Of a stretch of 64,000 nucleotides of DNA, positions 4,052 through 56,653 are shown in pieces. How positions within the stretch are numbered: the stretch's first letter is position 1; every line of letters begins with the position of its first letter. The DNA is from a virus, in UHGV virus genome UHGV-0010228; one strand, given 5' to 3'. The notes below the pieces were generated by a model. It saw only the letters and a list, made by a program, of their open reading frames with translations. It made no database searches and was not told the origin of the DNA. Both the position numbers and the translations under genes were made by a program.

Positions 4052-4068
4052 TCATTTTAATAATATAT
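4052..4068 (-). promoter_or_regulatory. Conserved promoter-like motif copy (AATATATTATTAAAATGA, followed by ATAAATACAT)
   Basis: Same motif with the same spacing to GGAGG and ATG as the other copies. Confidence 0.5.
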
Positions 4069-4849: not shown

Positions 4850-4891
4850 AATAATTTATCCTCCTTATTATGTAAATTAAATGTATTTATT

Positions 4892-13125: not shown

Positions 13126-13494
13126 TTATATTTTAATGACCCATCTACCCTCTATATTAAATACTACTGCACGAGAAATAAAAATTCCCCATGATGTCGA
13201 ATCTGCTGATTCATCCATACTACTCATCCAATCATTTTTTATCTGATCAAGTGCTTCAAATCTTGAGCCTGTTTCTATATTCGTATCATAGAATGATGAT
13301 TGATATAAATCAGGTTCATTTTTTAATTCATAATTAGAATTACAAAATTGATTAATTTTAGATACTACATAATCGTAATTATGATGTATTGGGTAAATCG
13401 GGGATACTTCCTTACTACAATCAATTCCATACTTAGGTTTTTCTAATAATATATCCTCAATTAACTCAGTGGGCTTAGCATTTAATTTCATCAT
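13126..13494 (-). CDS. hypothetical protein (122 aa)
   Basis: AAGGAGG RBS. The start overlaps the stop of the upstream gene (ATGA). Confidence 0.6.
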   Translation of the reverse strand: MMKLNAKPTELIEDILLEKPKYGIDCSKEVSPIYPIHHNYDYVVSKINQFCNSNYELKNEPDLYQSSFYDTNIETGSRFEALDQIKNDWMSSMDESADSTSWGIFISRAVVFNIEGRWVIKI

Positions 13495-21700: not shown

Positions 21701-24700
21701 CCTGATTAATTTTATTAGCTTCTTTCTGAAGATTTTCATTTTCTTTAGCAAGATTTATCTGTTCTTCCTGAAGCTTATGATTTAATCCTGCTAATTCATT
21801 TGTCTCTCTGAATAAATCAATTATCTTCTGTAAGTAAGATGACTTAGCGTCGTCATTATCTTTAATCTTAGATTCTACAAAATCTGCTAAACCATTAATA
21901 CCTTCAGGACCTAATCCCTTATCAATTTTACCAGATTTCTTAACTCTCTTAAGATTTTCAATAACGCTAGCATTAGATGCATCTTCTGATGTTCTACCAC
22001 CAAATGTGAATCCTGAAAGATCTACATCTCCTGCATACGCAGCTTTAATTAATTTATCAAGGAATATATCTTTATTAATACCTACTCTAGAATACATCGC
22101 ATCATCATTAAATCCAACATTCATTCTCGTAGCTTTTCTGCGTATATCTCCATATTTTCTAACATATTCTTCACGCATAGCTTCATATTTATTCTTGTCA
22201 GCTTCAAACTGATTCTTCTTTGAATTATATCTAAATCTCTTTTTCTCATTCTCATCTTTACGCTTTCTCTGCTTTACAAAATCTCTAAAATTACCAGTAG
22301 CAAAATATCCTGATTCTCTATATTCGTTAAATAAATCATCATCTAAGATATCTGCACTAAGATTACCAATATCTTCGATACCCATACCACTAGTATCTAT
22401 TCCATGTCTCTTTAACTTCTTTAATATTCTATCTGCATATTCAGTTCTATCAGCTTCACTAGTAAATTCATTTATTTTAAGATGGCTATTTAAAGCCTTC
22501 CCAGCAAAGAAATCTCTTATTGACTGGAGATAATCTTCTACTGCTGTCTGATAGCGCATAGTGCGTTCTCTTGCAGCTTTTTCTTCTGGGCTTTCCTGAA
22601 CTTTAACACCATCACGCATTATCTGCTCTTCAAGTGTGCCATTCTTTACAGCCTTAGACCATTCTCCACGTCTATAAAGTAAATCCATAATATCATCAGA
22701 TGTTTGTAATCTATTCAGATACTTATCATCTTTCATACCTGCTTTACGGAACATCTCACGATATCTCTTCACCTGTTCATCTGTTAAATCTACTTCTCTA
22801 CCACCAAGATCTTTAATTGTGATATTTTCTCTGATCTTATTGACCTTTTTCCACATCTTATTTTCTTTCTTGGCAGCTTTAGCTTTTGCATTTAGATCAT
22901 CTAAATCATTATCTGCTGTCATCCAATCAAATGCATTTCTACCAAGATCTGACATTTGATCAGCCCATCCTTCTTTTGCAGCTCTAGCTATATCACCTTT
23001 ACCTCTAATAGCTTGGAATATATCTACAGCTTTTCCTAATCCTGTTCTGCTATTACCAGCTTCACGTTCAGTTCTCCACTTACCCATGAGCATAGTAGCA
23101 ATATTTCTACGATATTCTTTTCTATAATCACCCATAGCATCTTTACGTTTACCACGAGTCAATAACTCTAAACCACGAAGACCTATAGAAACCGGAGCAA
23201 CTGCACCATAGATTCCTAATGACGCCGTTTTAGTTACAGCTTTAGTGATAAGCTTAGTTAATGACGCTACTGGACCAAATATTCTATGAAGGGCACCTTC
23301 AATAATAGTCTTAGCACCATCACCTATTTTTTCAATAACCGCTTTTATATTGTCTACAATATTATCTTTAACTTCTTTTATACTATCAACTATTGGACCA
23401 AATGCTTTTCTAAATGGTATTGTAATATTTTTTCTAATGGTATTTAAAGTTCCCATTACATGTTCTTTTGCAGGTCCTATGATATTATCAATTATAGTAA
23501 CCTTCATAACATTAGCCATTCGTCTTAAAAGACCATTAGTTTTTCTACCTATTACATTACCATTTTCATCAACTTGCTCTGTACCAAATAAGTATTCATT
23601 AAATTTCTTACTTGCAGAACTCATTCCGATTACCATACCAGCAATACCCATACCAATAGGTCCACCAGCAGATAATGCTGCAGGAATAAATCCCATATGA
23701 GACATCGTAGTAGCAGTTAATGCACCAATAGCAAAACCTTTTATTCCCTTACCGATCATAGGGAATAATTTGCCGAGTCTTTCTTTAGATTTATTCCAAT
23801 GATTTGATAACCAAGTTCCGCTGCGTTTTCCATCAGCACCTTTTTCACCAAATAACATTGATTGGAAAGACTCATTATTCTTTAATATACCTAATGCCGC
23901 ACCTAATAACGCACCACCAATTACACCAGAAGGTAATAATGCAGATGTTAACACTCCACCAGCACCAAACTGAGATACTGTCGAAGGCAATACTATTGAT
24001 TTTATAACACCTAATGTTGCACCACCAATTGCAAATGGTAAAGCTTTCTTAAATGATGCTTGCATCTTTTTAGTGAATATACCACCATGACGCTCACCAT
24101 TATCATCCATCTTACCAAACATTACAGACTGGAATGCTTCGGTGTGACTAAGAATTGATAGACCAGCCGCAGCGATAGCTCCACCTAATACAGTGTGAGG
24201 TAAAAATGCAAGACCGGTTAATCCTAAATTTTGTCTAGTTGCTAATAATCCGAAAATACCACCAGCTATTGCAGCTGCAGCTGCTTTAGGAGCAATCTTC
24301 TTTGCAGATTCTTTAAATTTTTCAAAGATATTCTGAGTAACTTTCTTTTTCTTAGTACTATCATTACTACCTTTTATATCTTCAGCAACATCTTCTGCTG
24401 CATCTTCAATTTTTTCTGCACCATTATATATCGTTAACGCAAATTGATCTTTTGCTGACTCGATCATATCCGCGGAATTATCAACTCCAACTGTGAATCT
24501 TTTCTTAGCACCTATAAGTTTCTTTCCAGTGAATCGTTTATAGTTACGCTTAGGGCCTTCTAATAATTTTGTCTCAGTAGCATTTATATATTTCTTATCT
24601 TCTACATCATCTGTAAGATTACTAGTAATATTTACTGTAGATTTTCTATCTCCTGGCTTTCTGAGTTTCCTCTTAAGAGATTCTTTTGTAACCCCTTCAG

Positions 24701-27680
24701 CCAATTGTACTTTACGAGGATCATTTTCCATTTGATAAACTTTATTTCGTTTATCTTTTCTATGTCTATCAGTCCATGATAAATATTTAAGATAAGTTTC
24801 ATTATTTTGCCAATCCTCACCAAATAAGTAAGTCATGGTACCACGCTGAATCTTATCGTATCCTTTTCCTAATTCTTCTTTGGTCTTTTTCCAAAAAGAC
24901 TTTTTACCATCCTTAGCTTTCTTAACCTGATCTTTAAATATACCATCTTTTTCATCAAAGAAATATTTCTTTATCTTTTCTCTAAGTTTTTTAGATGGTT
25001 CACTATCCCAGAATTTTGATAATAATCCATTTTCACCAAATAATGAAGATGTGAAATTAGTAAAGCTTGCAGATAAATTAGAAATTGCTATTGTATTAGC
25101 ATTTGCATTCTGCATTAAAGCTTCTTCTGGGGTATTTGGTGTTGGAGCATCTTGTAATCTATTAACTAAATTATTTCTAAGAGCAGTATCCTGTGCAACC
25201 TTTCTCTGGTCTCTACCAAGAATATCTTTTGGATTTCCGGTAATGTCCATCTTTTCAACTTGTGCACGAATATCATCAGTATCATTACTATGCCTAGCTC
25301 TTCGATTACGCATTCTATTGCGTAATGCTGCTTTATTACCACTAAATTTTACAGACCGTTTAGTACCAACACTATATGTGTTATAATCCAGATCATCAAA
25401 ATCAAAATCATCGGCGCTTCTAACTGGTCTGTAATGTTTATAATCGAAATCATCTTCGAGATCTTTATTTATCCCATATACAGTTCTAAAAAGTCTATCA
25501 TCTACAGGATCTACAAATTTTGATCTAGCATATTTATTCATTCTCTTCTTGCGCATTGCTTCGGCACGTTTAGGAGAGAATTTTCCAACAATTTTTTCTC
25601 CAAGATGAGTATTCTTTACTATCCATTCTTGATAATATTTCTTAATTATTTTCTTACATTCAGTCTTTTGCTCATTGATAGATGTAGCTTTATCGGCTAC
25701 CTTTTGTATTTCTTTATAAAATCCAGGTTCTGATGCGATATCTTCAATAATATCATCAGTAATTCCCATTTCTCGCATATAGTTCAATATACGTTCATCA
25801 ATCAAGCTTGAATCCATAAAGGCATATTCAAAATGGTTAATATCGAACTTTCTTCTACCACGTTCATCAGTACGTTTAAACTTTATATTATTTCTTCTAT
25901 CATTCCAAGCAGTTTTTCCGTACTGATTATTAATGTTTCTAAATATTGAAGTATCTGATGATCCAATATCAAATAACTTCTCGTTCAATCCAGCAATTGA
26001 CTCATTTATATAATTATCATAATCCATTATAGCTTGCTTATATAGATTATAATTTTCTTTCTTAAGATATGAGATTGCCTTTGCGAACTCAATACGTGCT
26101 TGTTTATCATCTATATTATCAAATATTCTATCATTAGTAATTTCACTTACTCTAGATGAAACCTTTTTTCTTTGCTTCTTATCACCAACTCCATTTATTG
26201 CATCAGTAATAGATTCGGCCATATTATTAAGAGAATATTTAAGCTCATCATTGAAATCTTTTTCAATACGATCTTTAGTCTTGAACATTCCTGTTTCATA
26301 ATCATAGTATCTCTTATTACCTTTACTATATGAAACTCGATTAAATCCATTAGGATCAACATTGAGATTTGATTTGGATAATATCTTACTGATATTAGCA
26401 ATATTATTATCCATACTACTCAAATATTCAGGAATTACTTCAACTATAGCTCTTTGAGCATATCCATTCCATGGTAAAGCATCTTTTGTATATCCACTAA
26501 GGCTTAATCCTTTTAATTTATTTCGGTCATTACCAAAAATATCACTAATTCCTAATAATGACCATATCATCTGCCCACCAAAGCCTAAACCTTTTGGTGA
26601 ATAACTCCCAATTCTTTTCAATATCTCATCGGCATATTTGCCAATCTTTTCATCAAATTTCTTTAATGATTTTGGCATTGCCATACCAATGAATTTTTCT
26701 GCAATAAATCCTACAGGATCATTCTTTATTTTCTTTATGGTATCTCCTCCGCCCATTCCTTGACCAGGAAGCATGAGCTGAGCCATTGTACCTAATAATG
26801 AATTTCCAAAATTATTTTTAACGTATCCAAGATATTCTTTTACATTAAATCCACTAGAAGTGTCAAAGTTTTTGCTTGAAGGTTTATCTTTAGAATATTT
26901 ATATTTTGTCATATTTTCAAGCATATCGCCAATTCCACTCATCATATCATTTGCAGATGAGAAGAAATCGCCCATAGTTTCATATGCTTGAACTGTATTT
27001 GAATTATGAAATTCTAACAGTTTTTCAATATTATCATTTATTCTATCAACCTTATGATTTAAGGTCATAAGTGATGAATTCAACAAATTCGTTCCATATA
27101 GAACTGAATTTATTATAGCATCAGCATTAGCACTAGAAAGTTTTGCATTTGTCCTATTTATACTATTAGCTAAATGCTCCATTCCTTTTACTTGTGCCGA
27201 ACTTGATAGCACAATTGACTTCGCAACACCAGCAGATGCATTCATATACACTTCTGCGTTTTTTGAATTATTTGTACTATCAGAAAACTCATCATCATCT
27301 AAAGCAAAATCATCATTTAAATCAAAATCTCCCATTATATCATTTTCAAATGAATCATATAATTCATCTGATACAATATTTGAGAAGACTCCCGAATTTA
27401 ATTGCTCTTTTGCTCTATTAAAAGTATCTCGAGCAGCTTTAGCGAGTTTATTTTTACCCATCTCTCTCTGCTCTTGGGTCTGCACATTCTTAAATTTTCT
27501 TGATGTATTTCTTATCTCCTTATTAATTTCTGAAATACCTTGTGCAGTATTATATGTTGATGGTAATACTTCTTTAGCAGTTATCTTAAAAGCATTACCA
27601 ACTGACGATCCAGCATTTCTTACCCAAGATTTTTTCTTAGATCTCGAACTGCTAGATCTAGATTTTATAGTTCTAGCCAA
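15717..27680 (-). CDS. Giant 3987-aa virion/tail protein: tape-measure-like glycine-rich TM region plus C39-like peptidase, lytic transglycosylase and M23 peptidase domains
   Basis: Uninterrupted ORF with TTG start and AAAGGTGG RBS. The middle has Gly/Ala-rich membrane-spanning segments (AAAAIAGGIFGLLA..., GGPIGMGIAGMVIGM). Domain motifs: GGCGPTSLAM...GHIVVASGMD (C39-like); LTLAQAIQETSLGSAGG...NNMFGVM (SLT/lysozyme-like); HNGIDFAAPAGTPIY...GNHLHYGVKKNG (M23). Confidence 0.85.
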   Translation of the reverse strand: MARTIKSRSSSSRSKKKSWVRNAGSSVGNAFKITAKEVLPSTYNTAQGISEINKEIRNTSRKFKNVQTQEQREMGKNKLAKAARDTFNRAKEQLNSGVFSNIVSDELYDSFENDIMGDFDLNDDFALDDDEFSDSTNNSKNAEVYMNASAGVAKSIVLSSSAQVKGMEHLANSINRTNAKLSSANADAIINSVLYGTNLLNSSLMTLNHKVDRINDNIEKLLEFHNSNTVQAYETMGDFFSSANDMMSGIGDMLENMTKYKYSKDKPSSKNFDTSSGFNVKEYLGYVKNNFGNSLLGTMAQLMLPGQGMGGGDTIKKIKNDPVGFIAEKFIGMAMPKSLKKFDEKIGKYADEILKRIGSYSPKGLGFGGQMIWSLLGISDIFGNDRNKLKGLSLSGYTKDALPWNGYAQRAIVEVIPEYLSSMDNNIANISKILSKSNLNVDPNGFNRVSYSKGNKRYYDYETGMFKTKDRIEKDFNDELKYSLNNMAESITDAINGVGDKKQRKKVSSRVSEITNDRIFDNIDDKQARIEFAKAISYLKKENYNLYKQAIMDYDNYINESIAGLNEKLFDIGSSDTSIFRNINNQYGKTAWNDRRNNIKFKRTDERGRRKFDINHFEYAFMDSSLIDERILNYMREMGITDDIIEDIASEPGFYKEIQKVADKATSINEQKTECKKIIKKYYQEWIVKNTHLGEKIVGKFSPKRAEAMRKKRMNKYARSKFVDPVDDRLFRTVYGINKDLEDDFDYKHYRPVRSADDFDFDDLDYNTYSVGTKRSVKFSGNKAALRNRMRNRRARHSNDTDDIRAQVEKMDITGNPKDILGRDQRKVAQDTALRNNLVNRLQDAPTPNTPEEALMQNANANTIAISNLSASFTNFTSSLFGENGLLSKFWDSEPSKKLREKIKKYFFDEKDGIFKDQVKKAKDGKKSFWKKTKEELGKGYDKIQRGTMTYLFGEDWQNNETYLKYLSWTDRHRKDKRNKVYQMENDPRKVQLAEGVTKESLKRKLRKPGDRKSTVNITSNLTDDVEDKKYINATETKLLEGPKRNYKRFTGKKLIGAKKRFTVGVDNSADMIESAKDQFALTIYNGAEKIEDAAEDVAEDIKGSNDSTKKKKVTQNIFEKFKESAKKIAPKAAAAAIAGGIFGLLATRQNLGLTGLAFLPHTVLGGAIAAAGLSILSHTEAFQSVMFGKMDDNGERHGGIFTKKMQASFKKALPFAIGGATLGVIKSIVLPSTVSQFGAGGVLTSALLPSGVIGGALLGAALGILKNNESFQSMLFGEKGADGKRSGTWLSNHWNKSKERLGKLFPMIGKGIKGFAIGALTATTMSHMGFIPAALSAGGPIGMGIAGMVIGMSSASKKFNEYLFGTEQVDENGNVIGRKTNGLLRRMANVMKVTIIDNIIGPAKEHVMGTLNTIRKNITIPFRKAFGPIVDSIKEVKDNIVDNIKAVIEKIGDGAKTIIEGALHRIFGPVASLTKLITKAVTKTASLGIYGAVAPVSIGLRGLELLTRGKRKDAMGDYRKEYRRNIATMLMGKWRTEREAGNSRTGLGKAVDIFQAIRGKGDIARAAKEGWADQMSDLGRNAFDWMTADNDLDDLNAKAKAAKKENKMWKKVNKIRENITIKDLGGREVDLTDEQVKRYREMFRKAGMKDDKYLNRLQTSDDIMDLLYRRGEWSKAVKNGTLEEQIMRDGVKVQESPEEKAARERTMRYQTAVEDYLQSIRDFFAGKALNSHLKINEFTSEADRTEYADRILKKLKRHGIDTSGMGIEDIGNLSADILDDDLFNEYRESGYFATGNFRDFVKQRKRKDENEKKRFRYNSKKNQFEADKNKYEAMREEYVRKYGDIRRKATRMNVGFNDDAMYSRVGINKDIFLDKLIKAAYAGDVDLSGFTFGGRTSEDASNASVIENLKRVKKSGKIDKGLGPEGINGLADFVESKIKDNDDAKSSYLQKIIDLFRETNELAGLNHKLQEEQINLAKENENLQKEANKINQDIADAAAVDVEINTDGDITGDDVRKKRKSTSKGNPLKRFGKRIMDKYKITENENVQNMKNNIKSFFALNRKDEDTEEVRKGATSVATIGATSAAKTNEEEEKPTENDTSIIRKALGKILGVSGSVLGAVGNTLPAKLVVAGVKKIIPAYTVAGITIGIAEIIRPGFQARLEAKTQEFSNFIERGAIWDQYVLPTLEHGLTSIGNGINKFSENFPMYWNQYIFPSITKVFENIGKNAHYIADVIKVMFNTLAEPMMNAFISVIPTIAGSVLKALWNVTVGKLVPGWKFKTDTTEVYTLSTAHMSKEQRASMIQGLQANGNNVIDVDEDGTISYTRDQDAIGIDEDGNATYAEHTDAQRIGLNGFVRGAINAARGGRTGKLLYKGAGAVLGATVGGAFGLMPGGISPVTGALYGGARGAALGDAAIKATSSVARSVAGSSINTIVSSTGLRSGRASDIGARVLQNGALNNISDKTLDEVNKVLVSNIDDKQAYDILKGISAESAAGNVKSGAGAMVAKGLSVHKAPEELLEEVLKYLPVEERLGVLEKYASESVSKSIVDIARRNIIKDTALDLGFTMSKSEAGAIAEATAKAAAGEATTDFEKDILKKSTQSVVETGASDAVKESRKGLIRKAFGLVEKGISAIAKNKVVLKVLGKIMKDKSGQKTVIAKTISAISSWLKDKLTFILSEDRIYMKYATLLGTQIAKAGITTSPIGILFGVYDLATGFFEAANLFKVNANDVDLLMRFISSVMKCLMGISVGIVIDLTLEVVGAFKGCDLKCEFASFLYDKLSGLFNDQFALNLDEAQKRFEEEAAQYNAENGDDLTLDEYSDTIANRSVIKRVWSVIRHPIISMNKALGYGKPAGAYSGYTMTDYNDDYITNDVSGGTIRSGASTNTSNNRNKSSNINNAGFGRGPVGFGYGQALSQKNAQWSSIPLGTLPNGQPSTMANGGCGPTSLAMIANDINGKMISPGDIGKMAAANGYITQGGANAALFTKGAAEMGLKPHQVTRGSELYTNIKSGVPTIVAGRGDHTNDPFTSAGHIVVASGMDSNGNIIIKDPMDGKTKSYSASSVINNATGGWSYGYGNINIPDMYKTKKTAYDIPFGYGLISSTLNKLSNKSKLVKDITTAKKNEAKTTTNYNPPAPSKLYNAANKTKLTSRDIENKYLADPYKFCAIKKSIPPVPEQTKDLAGIGNTALYSLILSYKKSDFKLYDKYIVEGYKKYEALSWRKKVNTYGDNIFRTRYIYEYVYKKWKSSTGSNDTTITKIDYFNKSTDVCNVATIGKKNVPVSKITDAELRRLVDTVMQSADRDKYYTLRDYWRYVEIPINKKYNKYSIVIKDGETETGTNVTYKSKSVIKQHERTRLSYIYVNWGLSSSKIKDMQERVDNSEYYVNGVDMSSIAATDESLASGLLEHTREGVMNFLGSLKGENLFTKLKRLAGAISSYMTAYVNGTDPWEAIASELESDVSSDYETAEDGKTLGSTGIVDFNGSSITIPAELNVSGRQWAKKSLSERLNILAKFAQDNARSTSLPPSLTLAQAIQETSLGSAGGALSSNNMFGVMPKGKLAKYNTIGDSVVRYWDVLSGKLYSGARTATTAYDAMHAVANAGYCTSTYDYPNNIPMAKIDYENKLKRLYVNYNLGQYDSVGGKNIYGWGDIDLPIGYGNSTWGEMISGYAEGVGNAMKASKMGDLWDWINSKYSSGKSSNTNTTSKSSSSSLSGSSVGSSVNVVGNNAKEAIQKTLKYTRISSPFGYRSDPQSGKRKMHNGIDFAAPAGTPIYTPVSGTVTRSESPGSTGGFGNLVVVTDSKGTQHYFAHQSKRLVSKGARVAKGAKVGLVGSTGKSTGNHLHYGVKKNGSWINPASYSLVGLGPDYNKKLNIANVNMAKRYNINPDAPYFGGNSENGGFINKNTFINANNDGVESRLDTIANTIDKWYGDSKNSSPTNITNSGNTTIIGGNKTNNISTGSRAKSAKSLKNPNLNSMYNKIATL
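16100..16465 (-). other. M23 (LytM-type) metallopeptidase domain of the giant protein
   Basis: HxxxD...HxH motif set: HNGIDFAAP, then NHLHYG near 16154. Confidence 0.7.
16760..17180 (-). other. Lytic transglycosylase (SLT-like) domain of the giant protein
   Basis: AQAIQETSLGS... catalytic-Glu motif encoded near 17040-17110. Confidence 0.6.
18455..18900 (-). other. C39-like (papain-fold) peptidase domain of the giant protein
   Basis: GGCGPTSLAMIAN...GHIVV. The cysteine is encoded near 18840-18850. Confidence 0.55.
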
Positions 27681-28896: not shown

Positions 28897-28965
28897 ATAT
28901 AATACCTCCTTATATTATATAGTATTAATATAATGTATAATAAAAAAAAACAAGTGAATGACTAA
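28897..28965 (-). promoter_or_regulatory. 68-bp leader/promoter repeat, copy A
   Basis: Nearly identical to 30502..30572 (tattaatataatgtataataaaaaaaaacaagtgaatga). Confidence 0.5.
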
Positions 28966-29901
28966 TATTAGTCATTCACTATTATTAACTATATTGATTA
29001 TAATTCATTATATACCACAACTACCACTCCGTAGAATATACACACTTTGTCTCGCGATCATGCAACATGTTAACCATGACCTAACACCCCGTCGCCACCG
29101 TTTGCTTCTTCGGATCTTCAAGCTTTCGAAAACCCGCTTAAAATATACTACCCGCCACGTTACACGGTTTGCTATCTACATCGGCTCTTTCGAATGCAGA
29201 ATGCTCAAATGTTGAAACTTTAAATATCACTTAAGGACATTTATCATTACAACGCAATCATAGCATTAAATGTGCAGATTTAGATAGCAACAAATAATGC
29301 AATCATGTTTCGAGTATATTCTAAACGGGGAGGTTCTCTAATTGCACCGCCACGCCCAGTGAGGATGTTAGTCACCTACAGCAGTAATTGCGTAGAGCTA
29401 TATAACATCGTTAATTATAACCTAGTTATTTATTATCTTTAGTATATTATATAAAAGATTAGCTTCTTATTGTATCTAATCTATCTAGTAGAGTATTTAT
29501 TACCATCTACTAAATCTAGTCTATATAATATAAAATTCTTATATTATAATCATATTATAAACTATCATATTGTAAAGTGTCCTGATAATATTAATTGACA
29601 CGAATGTGAAGCCTATGTATATACTTCGAATTACAACAATATCGTTTTTAGATATCTTATTGACTAGCTATTAGTATTATTATGAACTATATAGCAATTC
29701 TTATCATATAATATCAATAAGAGATAGCGCGATTAAAAAATAAAAATAATCAATCAAAAAAGAATATCGCTAAATATAATATAACTATATTATAGAATTA
29801 TTCGTCACATAATTAATTTTAAATCCCATTTAAAATTAATTTCTATAATTATGTTATATCAATATAAAAAAATAAAATCAAAAACCATTTTGTTATTATT
29901 A

Positions 29902-30501: not shown

Positions 30502-30572
30502 TATAATACCTCCTTATATTATATATAATATTAATATAATGTATAATAAAAAAAAAACAAGTGAATGAATCA
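30502..30572 (-). promoter_or_regulatory. 68-bp leader/promoter repeat, copy B
   Basis: Direct repeat of 28897..28965. Confidence 0.5.
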
Positions 30573-31012
30573 CATGATACAGTGGATCTATACAAATCAA
30601 CATTATAATGAGTCGGCCCCGACTATTCATATAATATTAATATTGTATAGATCCTAGTATCATAGCACAATCTGCAGAATAGCAGAAGGTTGATAGTCTT
30701 CCTTTCCTTTCTATAATATCTACTTTCACATGATACTATCATGTTACGTTAGAATGATATTTCATTCAAGTGATCAATATTTTAGATTTTGTCTATCCTT
30801 TATATTTTTAATACTTTGACAAATTGAGGAAATTTATATAGTTTTATAACACCACCCTACAAGTTACCGCTAACCCAGTAACCCCGATGTTAATATGCTA
30901 GCTAGGATAAATCATCTTACATGCAATGCAACACGAGAATGTAGTAATGCAGCAAGATAATTTATCCTAGCCTATATAAGTTCACTTTAATAATATATAA
31001 GTATAATTTTAA

Positions 31013-36003: not shown

Positions 36004-39000
36004 ATGCTATTCGAAAATTATGAAGATTGGAGAGTATATCCACCACAACCGAGGATATATTTCCCTAAAAATTCTTCAAAAAATAAAACTGCAGGATATG
36101 GATCAGCGTTATTTTTATTAACCCCCAAAACTACATCATCTTTCGAATTTATGAAAGATAAAAATGTAGCACTCAGAATGTCTTTATATAAATACTATAT
36201 GATAGAGACGATGTATAAAGAAAAAATTGGTCGAAAAAATGTCATATTAAATATGACTAGACAGATGGAAGCTTTATATAATGAAAATAATGTTGAAAAA
36301 GATACTACAATATCTTATATTCCTAGACCTCAGAAAAAAGCTAGATTAAAATCTGGTAATAATATAATTGTAGATTTATCAATGTGGATGGAATTATATC
36401 TTAAATATACAGTAACTATTCAGAATCCTAAGGAAAAGTGTAGAATATTTATAGATTTATTAGATAAATTGCTTAATGATAGTAATTATAATAATTATGA
36501 AAAATTAGTATGCATAGATATAAATTCATGGACTAATAGAGCGGCAGATTGTGTTATGATGAATCGCGATCTACTCAATAACCCTCTATCAATTTTAATT
36601 TATGCTATGGTTAAATATCCGGATTTATTAAATGGAAAACTTAAAAACTTTAGAATATATCTCGTAAATAGATCTAGTAAGCAGATTTTTCTCTTTAATA
36701 CAAAAGATATTATTAAAGATAATTATAACAAATTTAAGAGTAAGATCAAATTATTCAAGGGTATATCTATATCATCTTCTGAAACTCTTGAGGGCGATAC
36801 CAATATATCAGAAGGTGAAGCCAAGGCTATCGCTATCAATAATTATAAAAATAAAGTATTAAAGTCAATGAAGAGTAATCTCTTAGGTAACAGTAAGAAT
36901 ACTGAAATTCGAGAAATTACTGACGATGATGAATTGATTGATAGTAATGATGATTATGATGAGATCTTCGATGTTACTAAAGAAATAGAAGAAGAATCTG
37001 ATGAAGTAAAACCAACCGATGAAGATTCTAATCTTTTTGATGAAATGGGAGCAGAGTTAGATCTTGATGCTGAAGCTTTGGCTGAATTAGATAATATGAT
37101 TGGTGATATTGATGATGTATCAACTGATGATATATTGAATACTCCAGTAGATGAAGTTGCAGATGATCTTGCTGAACGTGTTAAAAATAATGTATTCATT
37201 GCGGAATTTAAACCTAAGAGGACAAGTGAGCAAGAAGAGCGAAATCGTGAAATGATGGATATTCAGGCAATAGCTCTTAATCAGGAAAATATTGATAATG
37301 CAAAAACCAAGATAATTGATACAACAGATTTTTCAGACTATATCAATTCTTCCAATGTAAATATTCTTAAATCAAAATATGTTAATTTTGATAAAGACTA
37401 TGTTGAAAAGAAAATGGAAGGTGACATAGACAATGCTGTTGCTTGCTTATCTGGAGCGACAGATAAGATATTCATCACCAATAAAGAAGTTATTGATTCT
37501 TCAGACTCTTTAAATCTTAAGAGGACTTTAAAATATTCCCTTGAAGATGAAAAAGGTAATAAAATGACAATAACTTTTGATGTACCTATTATAATTGATA
37601 ACTGCTATATCTATGTAAATGGTAGTAAGAAGTTGATAGGTCATCAGTTTATATTAAAACCTCTAGTAAAAACTGGTCCTGATACTGTTCAGTTAGTAAC
37701 TTCATATAATAAAGTATTTATCACTAGAGATGGCGTTGTAGATTATATATCTTCTAGCATTATAACTTATATGGAGAAGAATCCAGAGAAGTTTAAGTGT
37801 GTTAGGGGTAATTCATCAATTAAGAATAAGAAATATAACACAGCATTAGATTTTACAATGTATGCTAAGTTATTTACTAGATTTACAATTGGTGATGAAG
37901 AATTTATTACCGGCATTGAAGAATTTTATGATAGATACAATAAAAAATATCCAACTAAAAAACTTAAGTTGGATAAAAAGAAAATTGCTGAGAAGTATCC
38001 AATTTCATTTAATAAAAAGACTGGTGAAATAAGATATATGAAATCAACTGAAAGTTTTTCGGATATCTTATTATCAATCATTGATGAAGAAGATAAGAAA
38101 GCAATTAGTAGAATTAAAAAGAAACCTAGACTGGTTTATGTTAGGGCTAAATTAATGGGCCAAATATTCCCAATGGCTCTTCTTTTAATGTATCATGAAG
38201 GATTCGCGTCTATAATGAAACGTGCAGATATTGCTTATCAATTCACAGATAAGAAGTCATATAATAAAATGGATAAAATGAGATATGATTTCTTAGAACT
38301 ATCGGATGGATTAGTCGTCTGGGAACGTAGAAATATGTTAACTTCATTACTCATGAATGGCTTAAAGCGATTAGATTTTACACCTTATACAATAGAAGAG
38401 TTAGAATCTAAGGATACTTATAGGTCATTATTAGTCGACTTATATAATGGGGATAATTCTATTTCATATAAAATAGATCAGTTCTATGATTTTACAATAG
38501 ATTCTATTACTAAGGAGATATTAGAGGATATGAATTATCCTACAAATCTTCCTGATTTATTAATATTAGCAGTTAAGATGTTATGTGATAGCGCATATGC
38601 TCTTGAAAATAATATGAATAATATGAGAATTAGAAGTAATGAGGTAATTCCAGCGATTATTCATAAAGAAATAGCAGATGCATATAACTTATATAGAAAG
38701 ACATCTTATAAGAAGAAACCAGTTAATGTATCTATTAAACCAAATATCATAATTGATAAATTACTATCTGCTGATACCAATCTCATCGAGGAATTTAGTA
38801 CTATAAATCCTGTATTAGAGATAGAAAAAGCTCGTTGTGTAACATTTAAAGGCTATAGAGGTATACAGTTAGATAGAGCGATAACTCTTCCTAGACGTGG
38901 ATATGATCCATCAATGTTAGGAATTATGGGAATTTCAACATCATCAGATGCTAACTGTGGTGTAAATAGACAGATGACATTAGAACCTGCGATTACATCT

Positions 39001-39128
39001 ACAAGAGGATACTTGGAGGTAAATGGTGTTGAAAATGTAAATTCTTTAACAGATGCTAATTTACTATCGCCAGCAGAATTATTAACACCACTCGGTGTTA
39101 TACATGATGACCCCGATAGAACTGCGAT
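36004..39128 (+). CDS. Multisubunit RNA polymerase beta-like subunit, exon 1
   Basis: AGGAGGTG RBS. C-terminal part aligns by eye with bacterial RpoB: ...LDRAITLPRRGYDPSMLG... (compare RERAGFEVRDVHPTHYGR), RGYLEV (YGFLETPYR), LTPLGVIHDDPDRTA ([14 protein letters not shown]). The exon ends ...gcg at| and the 'IKKSLLDVAV*' tail is intron read-through. Confidence 0.75.
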
Positions 39129-39541
39129 CAAAAAAAGCTTGTTAGATGTCGCAGTATAATACCTTGTGAATTGCGGGGATAATTGATACTTTTTATATAC
39201 TAAATCATTATAGTAATATAATGATGGCGAGGGGTAATTCCTTAGGTATAGTAATAATTATAAAAAGAATATTAAATCCGCATCTAATGCTCTTTATACG
39301 AGAAAAGTTCAGAGACTATCGAAAGCTAGATATCTATCATTTATAGAAATATATAAAATACTATACAATATATAGTATGGATAGATTGAGATAACCAAGT
39401 GAGTAGAGTAGAGCCAAGTTATTGGGTTAGTATATATATGATATTAGTATATAGTAAATCTATTAAATCGAAGCGCAAGGGTTAGATTTTATTTGGTAAA
39501 AGAGTAAGATCTAATAAGATATAGTCCGCGATCACATTGTG
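39129..39541 (+). ncRNA. Group I self-splicing intron in the RNAP beta-like gene (413 nt, no ORF)
   Basis: Classical core elements: P gaattgcgggga (39168-39179); Q aaatccgca (about 39282); R gttcagagactat (about 39307-39319); S aagatatagtcc (39516-39527). Internal guide gtcgcag (39148-39154) pairs with exon end cugcgau (39122-39128), with a U-G closing pair. Omega-G at 39541. Confidence 0.85.
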
Positions 39542-40724
39542 GTCTTACAAGCAAACGAAATACATGATTCCAGTTGCTGATTCGTCACCAGTGTTAATAG
39601 GTAATAAAGTTGAATCTATTTTACCATATTTAATTTCAAATGAATTTGTTGTTGATGCTAAGCAAGATGGTGAAGTTGTTGAGATTAAAGACGATTATTG
39701 TGTCGTAAAATATAAAGATGGAACTTATTATTCTATAGATATTGGAAGTAGAATTAAGAAAAATGCAAGTGCAGGTTTCTTTATAGACAATAAATTAACT
39801 TGCAATTTAAAAGTTGGAGATAAATTCAAAAAGGGTGATATTTTAGCTTACAGTGATAAAGCATTTACTCCTAATAGAGATGGTAAAGGCGCATCTATGA
39901 ATTTAGGAGTATTAACAAAAATTGCAATTGTAAGTAATTGGGATGTATATGAGGATAGTGCACCTATCACTAAAAAATTAGCTGAACGGTTAGCTACAGA
40001 TATGGTTTGGGAAAAAGCAGTATCATTAAATCCTGGTACTTACATTGAAAAGATGGTTAAGATTGGTGATAAAATAAAGACTGGTGAATCACTGATGTTA
40101 TTTGAAGAAGTTGATGATACGGATTTCGCTGCTGTTCTTAAACAGATTCGTGAAGAAAATCAAGAAGAACTTATTGAAAGCACAAAATCAACTATTACTT
40201 CGAAATACACAGGAGAAATTGCTGATATTAAAATATATTCAACTGTGCCAGTTGAAGAGATGGATGAATCTTTAGCTAAAATAGTGACCGATTATTATAA
40301 AAAGGTCGAAAAAAGAAATAATATTCTTGAAAAATATAAGAATCCTGGAGATTGTAATTATTATAAATCTGGACAGATTATATCTGAGGAATCTAAAGTT
40401 ATGAAACCATCTAAATCTGGTAAGATTAAAGGTGAGTATGCCGAAAATTCAGTAGTTATTGTATTCTATGTTAAGTATAGAGATGTAGCTGCTAAGGGTG
40501 ATAAAGTATGTGCACAGTTCGCACTTAAGGGTGTTTGCTCACATGTTATAGAAGAAGGATTAGAGCCATATTCTGAATATAGACCAGATGAAGAAATATC
40601 AGCTCTTATTGCACCTCTTGCAGTATCTGCAAGAAAAGTTCCGTCAGTATTCAAGATGATGTTTGGTAATAAATTGCTTATAGAATTAAAACGACATTTG
40701 AAAGATATGTACTTAAATAACTAA
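39542..40724 (+). CDS. Multisubunit RNA polymerase beta-like subunit, exon 2
   Basis: Junction codon at+g gives Met: ...HDDPDRTA-M-SYKQTKYMIPV (compare [20 protein letters not shown]). Downstream GDILAYSDKAF...NLGVLTKIAIVSNWDVYEDS (compare GDVLADGPSTD...NMRVAFMPWNGYNFEDS). Also ALKGVCSHV...LIAPLAVSARKVPSVFKMMFGNKLLIELKRHL (compare GNKGVISKI...[22 protein letters not shown]). The protein stops at about E. coli residue 1100. Confidence 0.75.
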
Positions 40725-47981: not shown

Positions 47982-48021
47982 AGTATTTTCCTCCTTATTA
48001 TACTATATGAGTTGTATTTAT

Positions 48022-48038
48022 TCACTTTAATAATATAC
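48022..48038 (-). promoter_or_regulatory. Conserved promoter-like motif copy (GTATATTATTAAAGTGAATAAATACA)
   Basis: Upstream of gene 47442..47981. Confidence 0.5.
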
Positions 48039-51868: not shown

Positions 51869-52258
51869 ATGAAAGAAATTATTATTATAATATTTACGAT
51901 TTTTGCTTTCATGTTATTATTTATAACGATTGCTTATTATGAATTTTATCAGTATAAAAAATGGATTGCTAGAAAGATGCCAATTCAAAATGATTTTGGA
52001 ACTCTAATGCAGATATTGACTGCAACAATAAAAACCGAATTAGATCTATATGAAGATGATATATTTAGTAATAAAGGTGGTATTACTAATAGCAACTTCG
52101 ATAATTATTATAACGATCTATGTTTGAGAATCATCAATTCACTATCTAAGCAATTTATAGATCAGCTTACACAATATATTACATATGAAACTATAGTACG
52201 ATATATAGCTAGATCTGTAAAAAAATATTTGTCAGAAAAAGTTAATGGGACATTTTAA
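51869..52258 (+). CDS. membrane protein (129 aa)
   Basis: N-terminal TM helix. Confidence 0.55.
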   Translation: MKEIIIIIFTIFAFMLLFITIAYYEFYQYKKWIARKMPIQNDFGTLMQILTATIKTELDLYEDDIFSNKGGITNSNFDNYYNDLCLRIINSLSKQFIDQLTQYITYETIVRYIARSVKKYLSEKVNGTF

Positions 52259-52260
52259 AA

Positions 52261-52294
52261 ATATAGGATATGGAAACTTTCCATATCCTATATT
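52261..52294. terminator. Bidirectional terminator atataggatatggaaa/tttccatatcctatat
   Basis: Palindrome between convergent genes. Confidence 0.65.
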
Positions 52295-52296
52295 TA

Positions 52297-52698
52297 TTAA
52301 TTATTTTCCTTCATAGCTTTCTTAGCTTCTTTAGCAGCCTTACGTCTAGCAAAGAATCCTCTAAGACCAGTCTTCTTTACTGGTGTTAAATCTTTGCCCT
52401 CTTCCTTAAGTTCTTTAATCCTTTCAGTATCAAGTGGCTTCATTTCAGATTCCTCCTCCTTTTTTTCCATGTTATTTAAATTTTTTATTTTATTCTTTTC
52501 GAGTATGATATGAACTTCATTATATAAAGCACCATCTAATTCCTTAAGACGAACATGCATATCCTTGCTAATCGTTGTTTTAGATACGTTAAATTCCTTA
52601 GATGCTGCAAGCATTGTTGATTTATGATTAACAATCCACTTAGCTTCGTCAATAACCCGCTTATCAATAACTTCACTAAATACAAATTCTTTTTCCAT
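52297..52698 (-). CDS. SpoIIID-like helix-turn-helix transcriptional regulator (133 aa)
   Basis: ASKEFNVSKTTISKDMHVRLKELDGALYNEVHIIL resembles SpoIIID (IAKEFGVSKSTVHKDLTERLPEINPDLANEVKEIL). Lys-rich C-terminus. AGGAGGAGTAATTTTC-ATG. Confidence 0.55.
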   Translation of the reverse strand: MEKEFVFSEVIDKRVIDEAKWIVNHKSTMLAASKEFNVSKTTISKDMHVRLKELDGALYNEVHIILEKNKIKNLNNMEKKEEESEMKPLDTERIKELKEEGKDLTPVKKTGLRGFFARRKAAKEAKKAMKENN

Positions 52699-52712
52699 GA
52701 AAATTACTCCTC

Positions 52713-53459
52713 CTATTTTAAGAATAGTTTGGTTAATGGTAGAACTATATTTTTATAATTAAATGAAATATCTAAATCATTTAAATCATCTTCAGTTATC
52801 TCATCAATTATCGTAGAATATTCTTCGATCATTAGTCGATATTGAGAATCTGAATTATATTCTCTATAATGATCAAGTATAAGATCTTTATTTTTATAGG
52901 CTTGTAGATACTCTTTTAAATATTTATTTACTGAGTAACCATTATTACCTATTGTTGTAATATCCCTAATAAATCGATTCATACCATTATCATGTAATTT
53001 TATTTTATCATCTGGAAGTCCTTTAACATCAAACGACTTTCCAATATAGAATTCGTATTGTGGAATAAGAAGAAAATGCTTGTATTTATTCTTGGCCACA
53101 AAATTAACTATATTATCTAAAGAATTATACTTTATACTATAATTCTTTACAAATATAGCATCTCTTTTTATAGAGATTATGTTATCTTCAGGAATTTTAT
53201 TCAATTCTATAAAAAGATTAACTGCATCATTAAATCCTCGTTCTAATTTAGAAGCAAAGTCGGGATCTTTTTGCATGATCCCGACTTTTATAACTCGCTT
53301 CTCTTTTGATAAATTGGCCAATTTATCAATATCTTTATCAGGTAATAAGTTATAATATTTCATTATAGAAGTATTACCTGATTTGATATCCCATTCGACT
53401 ATTTCAGAATTTAATATAAGAGGATTATTCTTATTTGTCCTGAACATTAGTCTGACCAA
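52713..53459 (-). CDS. hypothetical protein (248 aa)
   Basis: Operon member. Confidence 0.6.
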   Translation of the reverse strand: MVRLMFRTNKNNPLILNSEIVEWDIKSGNTSIMKYYNLLPDKDIDKLANLSKEKRVIKVGIMQKDPDFASKLERGFNDAVNLFIELNKIPEDNIISIKRDAIFVKNYSIKYNSLDNIVNFVAKNKYKHFLLIPQYEFYIGKSFDVKGLPDDKIKLHDNGMNRFIRDITTIGNNGYSVNKYLKEYLQAYKNKDLILDHYREYNSDSQYRLMIEEYSTIIDEITEDDLNDLDISFNYKNIVLPLTKLFLK

Positions 53460-54157
53460 AGAAAACGATCAAGATCGTCAGTAAGCCCAAACGAATACTC
53501 ATCTTTGTGCTTTTTCTTCTTATCTTTCTTTTTCTTTTTCTTATCCATCTTATCATCTTCATCATGATGTTTATCCTTTTTATCTTTATCTTTTTTACCT
53601 TTAGATACTTTATCTTCTAAGTCAGATATTCTATTGGATACCTTATTTAAATCTTCCTTAGAAAGCTTCTTTCCTAAAATTTTCTTATTCTCTTTAAGTA
53701 CGTCTTCCATATATATAAACTGTGGAAGATTCTTAAATAATTTTTTATATTCATTTAAGAATCTTATTCCCATAGCTTTATATACTTTATTAGGTAATAC
53801 TATAAATACATTAATTTCAGGAATTGGTTTGTTTGCATTAGATAATGCAAACATTGTTTTTACCGCCTTAATCATTGAAGCTTTAACTCTACGATTATCA
53901 AAATAATCATCAATTATATCTTCAACCTTATCAGGATCATAATCGTCGTCGTCATCATCTTCTGTTAAGATTTTAATTAATTTTCTAGGCGGTGTAAAAT
54001 TCCCATCTGAAGTGCAATGGCTAAATGTATCACTAATTGTTTTAGCTGTAGATACTGAAGATCCTGTATCTTCTCCATCTATTATGAAATAATCATAATC
54101 TGGAAGGATCTTCTTCGCCATCTTTTCAAAACTCTTTTTCTTACAAATATAAATCAT
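53447..54157 (-). CDS. hypothetical protein with poly-Asp tract and Lys-rich tail (236 aa)
   Basis: TAGGAGGTAAATAGT-ATG. Confidence 0.6.
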   Translation of the reverse strand: MIYICKKKSFEKMAKKILPDYDYFIIDGEDTGSSVSTAKTISDTFSHCTSDGNFTPPRKLIKILTEDDDDDDYDPDKVEDIIDDYFDNRRVKASMIKAVKTMFALSNANKPIPEINVFIVLPNKVYKAMGIRFLNEYKKLFKNLPQFIYMEDVLKENKKILGKKLSKEDLNKVSNRISDLEDKVSKGKKDKDKKDKHHDEDDKMDKKKKKKDKKKKHKDEYSFGLTDDLDRFLWSD

Positions 54158-54158
54158 A

Positions 54159-54965
54159 CTATTTACCTCCTATAGTACTTTCAATATTAATTAAATCTGG
54201 AAGCTTGAAACCATTTAACATTTCCATAGTTTCCATCTCTAACTTATCATAATGATTTGCCATTTTCTGAATTATTCTATGTGGCGGAACTTGCAATCTA
54301 CATTTTGGGTTATTACATTCAAAACGTGTATAATTTCTATCCCATTCCAATTTAGCACCACATCTTGGGCATCTAAATAATTCAGTTTTATTTTCTAATG
54401 TTAATGGATATAAATATCCATAATCAAGAATACGAATTTCATCACCTTCAGGTGTTTCAATATATCCATAATTAGCAGAATTTTTTACTGTAAATCCAAT
54501 ATCATCAAATATAAACGCTGACGATATTTGTGATAACATATCTTTGATTACTGGCTCATTATATATAAATTGCTCCTGATCCATAACATTTACATACTGT
54601 TGACATAATATTAACATATTAGTCTCATATGATTTTGCTAAGAATCTAGGCATTTCTGCTGATCGTTTAAATTCCGTAAAATTATCAACGATCCCTCGTC
54701 TATCAAGAGCGACTTTAAATACAAAATTATTTTTCAGTAATCCAATTCTATTAGTACCAGTACCTAATTCATCAAATCCATATGGTTCACATATATATTT
54801 TATAATTTCTGCTCTAGCATTATTATCCATTATATCAACTGATAATGCCTGATAAAATAATGCTTTTAATATCTCATCAGGGAAATATTCCTTGATGAGA
54901 CTTTCTGGCACCTCTTTCTCGACAGTTTTATTAAAATCAAGATCGAGGTTTGGTAATTTAAACAT
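54159..54965 (-). CDS. hypothetical protein with C-terminal Zn ribbon (CPRCG...CNNPKC) (268 aa)
   Basis: AAAGGAGATTTATA-ATG. Confidence 0.6.
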   Translation of the reverse strand: MFKLPNLDLDFNKTVEKEVPESLIKEYFPDEILKALFYQALSVDIMDNNARAEIIKYICEPYGFDELGTGTNRIGLLKNNFVFKVALDRRGIVDNFTEFKRSAEMPRFLAKSYETNMLILCQQYVNVMDQEQFIYNEPVIKDMLSQISSAFIFDDIGFTVKNSANYGYIETPEGDEIRILDYGYLYPLTLENKTELFRCPRCGAKLEWDRNYTRFECNNPKCRLQVPPHRIIQKMANHYDKLEMETMEMLNGFKLPDLINIESTIGGK

Positions 54966-54977: not shown

Positions 54978-56195
54978 TTAATATCCTAAATCCAAATCAG
55001 AATCTGCACTCATTCCATAATCATATTCACCAATTTCATAATCATCGATATCTATATCTGATAATCTGAATGACATTTCACCATTACGGAAGAATGACCT
55101 TCGATGACCATTTAGTACGTTCATGATACGACTATCTGATTCAAATTCTTCTTTGGCTCGTTTCTTGGCTTTCTTCTGACGCTTTTTAAGTTTCTTCCTC
55201 TCTTTCTTAGTCATTGGTGTTACTCCACATTCTGCACCAATCTTCTGACGAAGCATTTTAGCACCAGATTTACCAAGATCCTTCATCTGATCTCCAATAT
55301 CAAGGCCACATTTATACATATATGTGGCAACTTCAATCTTATCGATATCAGACTGACGGACTAATCTACCATTCATTACTTGAACCGTATCCATAGCTTC
55401 AAGTCTAGCTATTTCACTTTCTGTCATACCATCATATTTATGCATTTCTTCATAAATTGCAATAATTGAATCTGGATCTTCAGTTTCGCGTCCTTTCTGA
55501 TCAAATCGAATTGGTTTATTAGAATTGATGAAATCAATGATAGCATCAGTATCTGCCATACCAGAATATTTAAGATAAATATTCTTCTTCCTCTTCTTTC
55601 TTTCCTGCCGTCTATATTCATATTCCATTTCTTCTGGAACATAATCCATATCAAATACTTCATCAGGAAGATCTAATACTGCAGGATCTACAGGATGTGT
55701 TTCAGCATAACGCTTCATCACAAATCCTTTCATTTTATTAAAGAATCTATCATCATCTCTCCATACTGGAATTGGAGAATTTAATAACTTCTTATTCTTC
55801 TTCTTCATCTTTAATTTAGGTTCTGGTGGAATATATATATCTAATACACCTCCATCAACTAAAGATTCAACAAAGTCCAGAGGACCATACATATCTGTAA
55901 TCTTTGCAATATATTCATCGTATATATCAATAGCATCAGCCCAATCAAAATAGTCACCATATTTGCGACGAATTGTGCGAGCTTCACTATCATCAATTGA
56001 AGATGTTGATACTGATCTTGTCAAATAATCGTCATCTTCAAAGTTGTTATGTTGAACACTTAACACGAAATCTGGGAGCTCAATCAAATCTGTTTTTGCG
56101 AGCTTCATTATCTGCCTAGCTCTTTCGTGTAAATCTTCAATATCATAATCATCTGGATTAGCAACATCCATAGGATTATCTATCATATCAAACAT
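54978..56195 (-). CDS. hypothetical protein (405 aa)
   Basis: TAGGAGGTTAGGTCTAA-ATG. Confidence 0.6.
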   Translation of the reverse strand: MFDMIDNPMDVANPDDYDIEDLHERARQIMKLAKTDLIELPDFVLSVQHNNFEDDDYLTRSVSTSSIDDSEARTIRRKYGDYFDWADAIDIYDEYIAKITDMYGPLDFVESLVDGGVLDIYIPPEPKLKMKKKNKKLLNSPIPVWRDDDRFFNKMKGFVMKRYAETHPVDPAVLDLPDEVFDMDYVPEEMEYEYRRQERKKRKKNIYLKYSGMADTDAIIDFINSNKPIRFDQKGRETEDPDSIIAIYEEMHKYDGMTESEIARLEAMDTVQVMNGRLVRQSDIDKIEVATYMYKCGLDIGDQMKDLGKSGAKMLRQKIGAECGVTPMTKKERKKLKKRQKKAKKRAKEEFESDSRIMNVLNGHRRSFFRNGEMSFRLSDIDIDDYEIGEYDYGMSADSDLDLGY

Positions 56196-56331
56196 TTAGA
56201 CCTAACCTCCTATATAATATTTTATTCCCATTCTTCATTGTAATAATATATTAGCAAAAAATAAACTTAAGAATTGATAAGGATAGGAGCTAGTAGCGTT
56301 TAACTACTAGCTCCCTATCGGAGAATAAATA

Positions 56332-56595: not shown

Positions 56596-56636
56596 TTTTA
56601 TGTCCTCCTTTATAAGTACTTATAAGATGTATTTTA

Positions 56637-56653
56637 TCACATTAATAATATAT
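56637..56653 (-). promoter_or_regulatory. Conserved promoter-like motif copy
   Basis: ATATATTATTAATGTGATAAAATACAT upstream of gene 56332..56595. Confidence 0.5.

Follow-up and report, generated by a model that had tools for sequence, protein, structure and literature searches.

The virus genome UHGV-0010228 was analysed over a stretch of 64,000 nucleotides (here called the window), in which one open reading frame (ORF) on the minus strand encodes a 133-amino-acid protein related to SpoIIID, the mother-cell sporulation regulator. An initial annotation, made from the DNA alone, had proposed a phage-encoded SpoIIID-like transcription regulator whose helix-turn-helix (HTH) region could redirect or block host sporulation gene expression. 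Six-frame translation revealed no other SpoIIID-like ORF in the window. The features of the gene and of its product are the following.

52297..52698, minus strand: coding sequence of the SpoIIID-family protein, 133 amino acids, with ATG at 52698 and stop codon at 52297-52299; the coordinates are those of exactly one ORF in the ORF list
52707..52714, minus strand: ribosome-binding site AGGAGGAG, 8 nucleotides upstream of the ATG, read from the sequence
52483..52677, minus strand: four-helix HTH domain, residues 8-72, from the AlphaFold model (helices at 7-25, 29-36, 40-54, and 56 onward)
52558..52584, minus strand: recognition helix SKTTISKDM, residues 39-47, which includes Ser44, from residue column counts
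52369..52482, minus strand: charged, partly acidic linker, residues 73-110, from alignments; SpoIIID proteins are without it
52300..52368, minus strand: basic tail GLRGFFARRKAAKEAKKAMKENN, residues 111-133, predicted as a helix and perhaps left over from the basic region of SpoIIID

Coding evidence, family, and relatives

The ribosome-binding site of the SpoIIID-like gene and the stop codon of the gene before it overlap, an arrangement that points to cotranscription. The identical 133-amino-acid protein is present on at least seven metagenomic contigs, and a variant that differs by one residue was found both on the ENA contig ERZ27287442 k141_119764, of 223,545 bp, and on a contig of 104 kb from the Hadza gut. 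Diverged copies in loci L091 and L092 (88% and 76% amino acid identity) lie in the same gene order, and around both of them a 244-amino-acid gene is kept upstream and a convergent gene of 129 to 130 amino acids downstream. Measured by the Nei-Gojobori method against these two syntenic homologues, the ratio of nonsynonymous to synonymous substitution rates (dN/dS) was 0.10 to 0.16 for the whole gene, 0.07 to 0.12 for the HTH, and 0.05 to 0.19 for residues 86 to 133. The ORF is a real gene, and since dN/dS is low in both regions, purifying selection acts on the HTH as well as on the unusual tail.

The protein is a member of the SpoIIID family. The Pfam model PF12116 (SpoIIID; gathering score, 27) matched residues 9 to 71 on model positions 2 to 64 of 82 with 57.5 bits (E = 1.5e-15), while the other Pfam HTH families all gave E values of at least 0.005 and stayed under their cutoffs; PHROG 11726, "sporulation stage III protein D," matched with E = 2.3e-15 at positions 7 to 72 of its 89-position profile. 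The HTH pattern on which the initial annotation was built, KEFxVSKxTxxKDxxxRLxExxxxLxNEVxxIL, reappeared in the phmmer alignment with Bacillus subtilis SpoIIID (PDB 2l0k; residues 10 to 78, E = 1.2e-8), and a phmmer search of 1.84 billion representatives returned 309 relatives, all of them aligned only over residues 8 to 72 or thereabouts. From 62 sequences, AlphaFold produced a model with a predicted local distance difference test (pLDDT) score of 93 to 95 across residues 11 to 70. Foldseek placed the SpoIIID-DNA structure 2l0k first among PDB entries (probability, 1.0; TM-score on the target, 0.64) and found no other PDB structure at an E value of <0.01, the runner-up having an E value of about 1 (none other <0.9); the best viral structural match was the regulator of Bacillus phage SP-15. 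The family-typical residues R14, A19, T28, F36, S39, K40, T42, K45, D46, R50, L51, L58, V62, and L66 are retained. The proposal of a phage-encoded SpoIIID-family HTH protein is thereby borne out, the top profile match being SpoIIID and the majority of family-specific residues being in place; best matches to unrelated HTH families with the SpoIIID-specific residues gone, the outcome named beforehand as speaking against it, did not occur. A generic phage HTH that resembles SpoIIID by chance has nothing in its favour except the short length of the domain; it is refuted by the Pfam result (1.5e-15 against at least 0.005 for the rest), by 2l0k as the sole structural match, and by the 309 phmmer relatives, and we give it practically no weight. 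It is very probable that the protein is a functional DNA-binding protein of the SpoIIID family that is expressed early.

Outside the phage clade, the closest relatives are mostly canonical SpoIIIDs of 82 to 91 amino acids, with 44 to 55% identity across the HTH, whereas the known phage SpoIIID homologues are more distant from the 133-amino-acid protein (21 to 32% identity). That cellular SpoIIIDs are nearer than the phage homologues is consistent with a gene that was captured from a host and then diverged. The closest relative, P0181, is chromosomal and is encoded amid housekeeping genes. The canonical P0203 (49% identity across the HTH) is also chromosomal, in a setting of spoIID, an M23 peptidase gene, spoIIID, mbl (MreB_Mbl), and cotJB, which is unlike the phage operon in which the gene studied here lies. 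For P0011, the closest noncanonical homologue, a synteny comparison showed neighbouring genes unrelated to the phage locus. A tblastn search of 50,697 GenBank phages with the full protein gave no match at an E value of ≤1e-3. With the HTH alone, at an E value of ≤10, the same kind of search retrieved phi3626, CP51, SP-15, and LIS04 together with three faecal phage contigs, and in these tblastn searches no SpoIIID-like match was seen in the AR9-like, Staphylococcus, and LPJP1 jumbo phages. A pattern scan of IMG/VR with the protein found no relatives, and a megablast search of phages with the 15 kb around the gene found no match.

Some of the relatives have unusual architectures. The metagenomic proteins P0005, P0006, P0007, P0008, P0009, P0016, P0017, P0023, and P0061, of 200 to 600 amino acids, carry three to six tandem SpoIIID-like HTHs and rank with the best-scoring relatives of the 133-amino-acid protein; to our knowledge, no family of SpoIIID-domain arrays has been described. 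P0047 (337 amino acids) consists of a canonical-looking SpoIIID with RGGEATKLKY and a C-terminal extension that looks sigma-70-like by eye, and at locus L100 (357-1568) the SpoIIID protein P0155 (55% identity across the HTH) is encoded directly upstream of a 289-amino-acid sigma-70-family gene.

Operon, early promoter, and carrier phage

The transcriptional setting of the gene comprises the following features.

54978-56195, 54159-54965, 53447-54157, and 52713-53459, minus strand: four upstream genes of the operon, with gaps of at most 14 nucleotides or overlaps
52259..52295, no strand assigned: bidirectional terminator, a perfect 17-bp hairpin from the terminator scan, shared with the convergent gene 51869-52258 (plus strand)
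56236..56266, minus strand: AR9-type early promoter, a T-run plus TAATATATTAT-TACAAT-G(+1), with predicted start at 56236 and core at 56236-56252
3444, 4053, 4892, 8285, 30983, 34434, 35919, 48023, 49150, 51669, 56236, and 56638, minus strand: predicted +1 positions of 12 early promoters, from motif alignment

The SpoIIID-like gene is the fifth and last gene of this operon. It follows 52713-53459, an orthologue of AR9 gp238 and phiR1-37 g276 (PHROG 21037 at 1e-29; tblastn) for which tblastn found matches in AR9, phiR1-37, LPJP1, and Staphylococcus jumbo phages; comparison of the operon neighbours with Pfam and PHROGs yielded no functional assignment. In AR9, gp238 closes an annotated early operon and convergent genes come next, the layout in LPJP1 is identical, and in both phages the position after gp238 or its orthologue is without a SpoIIID-like gene. 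Since the gp238 orthologue ends the operon in AR9 and LPJP1, the SpoIIID-like gene is an added accessory gene.

An AR9-type core, ATATATTAT-N6-G, heads the operon, and a hairpin lies upstream of this promoter. The early promoter consensus of AR9, AAATATATATTAT-N6-G(+1), is read by the injected virion polymerase (PMC5312081), and an annotated AR9 example fits that consensus in the AR9 sequence. The motif ATATTAT-N6-G occurs 30 times in the window against 17.5 ± 4.2 expected, with no shuffle reaching 30. Twelve intergenic copies align to a T-run plus ATATATTATTAaAgT-G, at 30 to 45 nucleotides upstream of a GGAGG site and start codon, and the strong copies in the window are all on the minus strand. 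Sigma-70-like promoters are not enriched in the window (49 against 57 expected). By the similarity of its promoter, the SpoIIID-like gene is probably transcribed early.

Two further kinds of element were noted around the promoters of the window. A conserved leader, G(+1)TGAATAAATACAT, lies between start site and ribosome-binding site in a subset of early transcripts to which the SpoIIID-like operon does not belong (4009-4052, 4850-4891, 47982-48022, and 56596-56637, minus strand), and may have a part in regulation or translation. A block of some 56 nucleotides occurs twice, at 28898-28953 and 30502-30557, each time upstream of a minus-strand gene, the two genes being unrelated; read on the plus strand, the second copy runs on into AACA-AGTGAA-TG, which fits the AR9 late consensus AACA-N6-T(A/G). 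The ORF-less stretches 29216-29901 and 30502-31012 (about 0.5 to 0.7 kb), toward which this late-type sequence points, had no Rfam match.

The carrier is an AR9/PBS1-like jumbo phage of a distant gut lineage, from human gut metagenomes with contigs of up to 223 kb. The window encodes virion proteins, NrdD with an ATP-cone, and split RNA polymerase beta-like genes; two of its larger features are these.

15717-27680, minus strand: giant ORF of 3,987 amino acids with Peptidase_C39_2, Glucosaminidase, and Peptidase_M23 domains (4,011 amino acids in a related contig)
36004-39159 and 39537-40724, plus strand: RNA polymerase beta-like subunit in two ORFs, matching consecutive parts of the same PHROG profiles

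In the AR9 group, the genome is transcribed by virion and nonvirion multisubunit polymerases (PMC5312081). The two beta-like ORFs cover PHROG profile positions 287 to 1055 and then 1060 to 1421 of 1424, and the 377 noncoding bases between them (39160-39536) matched no Rfam intron or other RNA family. The best matches of the beta-like protein are in Listeria phage LPJP1, Staphylococcus jumbo phages, Yersinia phage phiR1-37, and AR9-type Bacillus phages, at 25 to 32% identity. The 3,987-amino-acid multihydrolase protein is presumably virion associated and cell wall degrading. The GC content of the window is 27 to 35%, no tRNA genes were found in it, and the precomputed Pfam matches on about 3 to 42 kb and 42 to 62 kb of it include no other sporulation gene. 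Directly downstream of the virion structural gene 14118-15635, on the minus strand, 13491-14114 encodes a 207-amino-acid protein with a RusA Holliday junction resolvase domain.

A Clostridia host is plausible on sequence grounds because the NrdD of the phage matches low-GC gut Clostridia: it is 60 to 68% identical to NrdD of gut Clostridia metagenome-assembled genomes (MAGs), many of which have, like the phage, a low GC content (26 to 30%). The initial annotation had taken the SpoIIID-like protein together with the anaerobic ribonucleotide reductase as a sign of a clostridial or other spore-forming anaerobic host, and for Clostridia this holds up in outline, through the NrdD identity and through chromosomal SpoIIIDs as the nearest relatives of the HTH. 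The genes on either side of nrdD in the phage window have no homologues at any of the nrdD loci in the Clostridia MAGs. By eye, a 186-nucleotide noncoding stretch just downstream of nrdD (5960-6145) seems richer in G+C than its surroundings. NrdD has 719 amino acids in a related contig against 700 here, its start or flank differing among relatives.

Possible targets and departures from SpoIIID

The reading that we favour, tentatively and at somewhat less than even likelihood, is that of an early DNA-binding protein acting on mother-cell sporulation genes of the host. A SpoIIID gene would have been acquired, most likely from a Clostridia host, by a phage ancestral to this AR9/PBS1-like gut jumbo phage, and would have become the 3'-terminal gene of a conserved early operon, where the injected virion RNA polymerase would transcribe it minutes after infection. 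The protein would act as a monomer, with the recognition helix SKTTISKDM in the major groove and the basic tail LRGFFARRKAAKEAKK, on its flexible charged linker, making a second DNA contact as the C-terminal basic extension of SpoIIID does, and it would occupy SpoIIID-type sites, or a variant thereof, on the host chromosome. Much of the sigma-E regulon is repressed by SpoIIID, which also controls sigK. If such sites were occupied at the wrong time, mother-cell gene expression might be derailed or re-timed, with either of two outcomes: the infected cell would be kept from finishing its spore, or the phage would be coordinated with spore formation. A host target is favoured because the gene is an accessory one that is absent from related phages, because the phage itself encodes RNA polymerases, because SpoIIID boxes show no enrichment in the phage DNA, and because SpoIIID homologues recur in the spore-former phages phi3626, CP51, and SP-15. 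It is favoured also because spoIIID (K06283) belongs to a listed set of sporulation genes for which phages of spore-formers are enriched (PMC10294663) and because phage sigF/sigG homologues lower the spore yield of B. subtilis by up to 99% (PMC10294663; PMC9429907).

Spore-forming Clostridia are major gut members, and sporulation drives their persistence and transmission. If the favoured reading is true, a phage mimic of a mother-cell regulator would be made within minutes of infection, and phages would decide whether the infected cell sporulates. As the carrier is independent of the host RNA polymerase, any effect on host genes would be pure host manipulation.

A number of points weigh against an action on host sporulation genes. 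The protein scored 52.7 bits with TIGR02844, the NCBIfam equivalog model of SpoIIID, below the cutoff of 111.5 bits. In column counts over 184 canonical and 63 noncanonical family members (n = 247), Leu30 (52609-52611) takes the place of a helix-2 Arg found in 246 of the 247 relatives, and Ser44 in the recognition helix stands where 233 of them have His. The intact motif RHIRGGxATKxKY is absent from the phage protein, and a hidden Markov model of the motif finds nothing in its tail. Because the Arg and His are altered and the C-terminal motif is not intact, the DNA specificity may differ from that of SpoIIID, or binding may be weaker. The probable early transcription has promoter similarity as its sole basis. 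AR9, a phage of a spore-former, is without a SpoIIID-like gene, and LIS04 (L006, 3962-4204), which was isolated on nonsporulating Listeria innocua and is of the same species as SP-15, keeps the SpoIIID-like gene of SP-15 (L007, 3929-4213). Phage SpoIIID homologues have also been rated "not validated" (PMC12713726).

Judged by its sequence, the phage protein is not a SpoIIID orthologue, since its equivalog score falls that far short, the near-invariant Arg and His are lost, and the C-terminal motif is not intact. Leu30 and Ser44 are both fixed across the phage clade, and 15 of the 21 HTH positions that are at least 85% conserved among canonical proteins are retained. Canonical proteins have R-H-I-R-G-G-x-[AS]-T-K-x-K-Y directly after helix 4; a profile search found at least 7,995 family members, and the best 116 of these are all of 81 to 136 amino acids and all contain GGx[AS]T. 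In the complex with DNA (2l0k), the basic C-terminal region of SpoIIID reportedly lies in the minor groove. Both this region and the HTH are essential for DNA binding by SpoIIID, according to the legend of Fig. S3 of PMC3789822. In the phage protein, the linker insertion (residues 73 to 110) comes first and is followed by GLRGFFARRKAAKEAKKAMK. The linker measures 38 to 52 amino acids, the L092 homologue having 14 additional residues, with a pLDDT of 54 to 72 and with length variation confined to a short acidic stretch at about residues 75 to 85. A putative relic, LRGFFARRK, lies in the tail about 40 residues downstream of the canonical motif position, and in the alignment the tail core [ILMV]-R-G-x-x-A-[TR]-[KR] is common to phi3626 gp42 (MRGVKARKIK) and the canonical IRGGxATKxK. 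The pattern [ILMV]RG..A[TR][KR], picked after the data had been seen, occurs in 7.5e-5 of composition-preserving shuffles of the tail. It is likely that the tail is a displaced, degenerate SpoIIID basic region, as this suggestive pattern, chosen post hoc, indicates; the tail alone had no match among PDB sequences below an E value of 0.2. R30L, H44S, and the displaced basic region are natural variants, already at hand for testing how SpoIIID recognizes DNA.

The changes in the protein could also mean that the HTH was retargeted, through R30L, H44S, and the new tail, to phage sequences, for early promoter shutoff, as help to the nonvirion RNA polymerase, or in the organization of phage DNA. The near-invariant substitutions and the rebuilt C terminus are conserved in the clade and under selection, which fits a new specificity; moreover, the gene is cotranscribed with core early genes common to AR9-like phages, and a phage whose isolation host was nonsporulating Listeria keeps an SP-15-type homologue. 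SpoIIID binds as a monomer to TAGGACAAGC-like sites (PMC11180830). Site and motif counts, which cover the 64-kb window and which an altered specificity would escape, gave no enrichment of WWRRACARNY (24 sites against 54.9 ± 8.2 in dinucleotide shuffles and 33 under a third-order Markov model) or of GGACAAG (1 site against 2.8 expected), and the repeated intergenic motifs of the window were only the early promoter, the shared 5' leader, the duplicated block, and terminator hairpins. An avoidance of SpoIIID sites was considered and dropped (z = -1.6 under the third-order Markov model; second of 64 control cores under a first-order model). The motif counts give no support for phage DNA as the target. 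Against such a target speak the canonical box, which shows no excess (24 against 55 or 33 expected), the clearly repeated intergenic motifs, all of which are promoter, leader, duplicated block, or terminator, and the related phages with the same polymerases, which do without the gene. Mainly on account of the substituted Arg and His and of the remodelled C terminus, we regard a phage-directed or otherwise new function as a serious, if rather unlikely, explanation.

A related idea, which we consider unlikely, is that the SpoIIID HTH was reworked into an early factor that acts with or beside the multisubunit RNA polymerases of the phage. Such a factor could be an early-to-late switch or a promoter selectivity cofactor, or, if the phage has uracil DNA as AR9 does, it could be a reader that tells thymine host DNA from uracil phage DNA; we know of no such accessory transcription factor for AR9/phiKZ-type polymerases. 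That the protein is a functional substitute for SpoIIID, which would switch on sigK and the late genes of the mother cell and in this way enclose the phage genome in the spore (a "virospore"), seems quite improbable. PBS1-type phages are classic cases of carriage in spores. That phage genomes become entrapped in spores is recognized as a strategy (PMC9429907), and the majority of HTH residues are conserved, but the equivalog model failed (52.7 against 111.5), there is no intact C-terminal extension, two near-invariant residues are changed, and expression that is early and free of regulation would be contrary to the timing set by sigma-E. Very improbable, in our judgment, is a protein without sequence-specific DNA binding, in which a degenerate HTH would serve as a protein-binding or decoy module, for instance by titrating a host partner or by docking on polymerase or clamp through its LRGFF motif. 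Such a module would be in keeping with the missing invariant Arg and His and with the conserved LRGFF patch, which is hydrophobic and precedes a basic helix, but the DNA-facing residues S39, K40, T42, K45, and D46 are all kept, the Lys/Arg-rich tail is typical of DNA binding, and there is no known partner.

Comparison with known systems

The protein shares with B. subtilis SpoIIID (2L0K) the same four-helix HTH, at about 40% identity in the best local alignment, and the recognition helix core S-K-x-T-x-x-K-D. With SpoIIIDs of gut Clostridia, the identity across the HTH is 44 to 55%. Like SpoIIID it is a small single-domain protein, for which monomeric binding aided by a basic C-terminal segment is plausible from the sequence. 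It differs in being encoded by a phage, behind a phage early promoter and not a sigma-E promoter, in its length (133 against 82 to 93 amino acids), in the charged insertion of 38 to 52 amino acids, and in a basic region that is probably degenerate and displaced.

Phage homologues of SpoIIID (PHROG 11726) are known from phi3626 (gp42), CP51 (gp43), SP-15 (gp284), and LIS04 (gp26), all carried by phages of Firmicutes; that of phi3626 was annotated by Zimmer 2002, as cited in PMC3714127. In these homologues, as in the protein described here, the C-terminal basic motif is variant or missing (MRGVKARK in phi3626; none in SP-15 and LIS04). phi3626 and CP51 are phages of 33 to 39 kb that have the gene amid replication and regulatory genes, and phi3626 encodes an integrase; the carrier described here, in contrast, belongs to the jumbo phages and encodes RNA polymerases of its own, and its protein has a long linker and tail. 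The same concept, gut phages of spore-formers that carry copies of sporulation transcription factors, spoIIID included, was put forward by Schwartz et al. 2023 (mBio, PMC10294663). Such copies are often truncated or altered and are presumed to be dormancy manipulators (PMC10294663), and among these phage sporulation genes only sigma factors have been tested experimentally (PMC10294663; PMC9429907). That study is a catalogue of KEGG orthologues, and this protein, its altered residues, its tail, and the AR9-like early operon are not in it.

With the AR9/PBS1-type phages, the carrier shares the promoter core, the gp238 orthologue, and the split RNA polymerase beta-like genes. It departs from them in the SpoIIID-like gene itself, which AR9, LPJP1, and the Staphylococcus jumbo phages are without, and in the distance of its polymerase, the closest beta match being about 32% identical. 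As the concept has already been published, the value of the present case is that of a well-described candidate and not of a discovery: phage SpoIIID homologues were known, and the 133-amino-acid protein is a somewhat aberrant example of them in an unusual carrier, not a new type of system.

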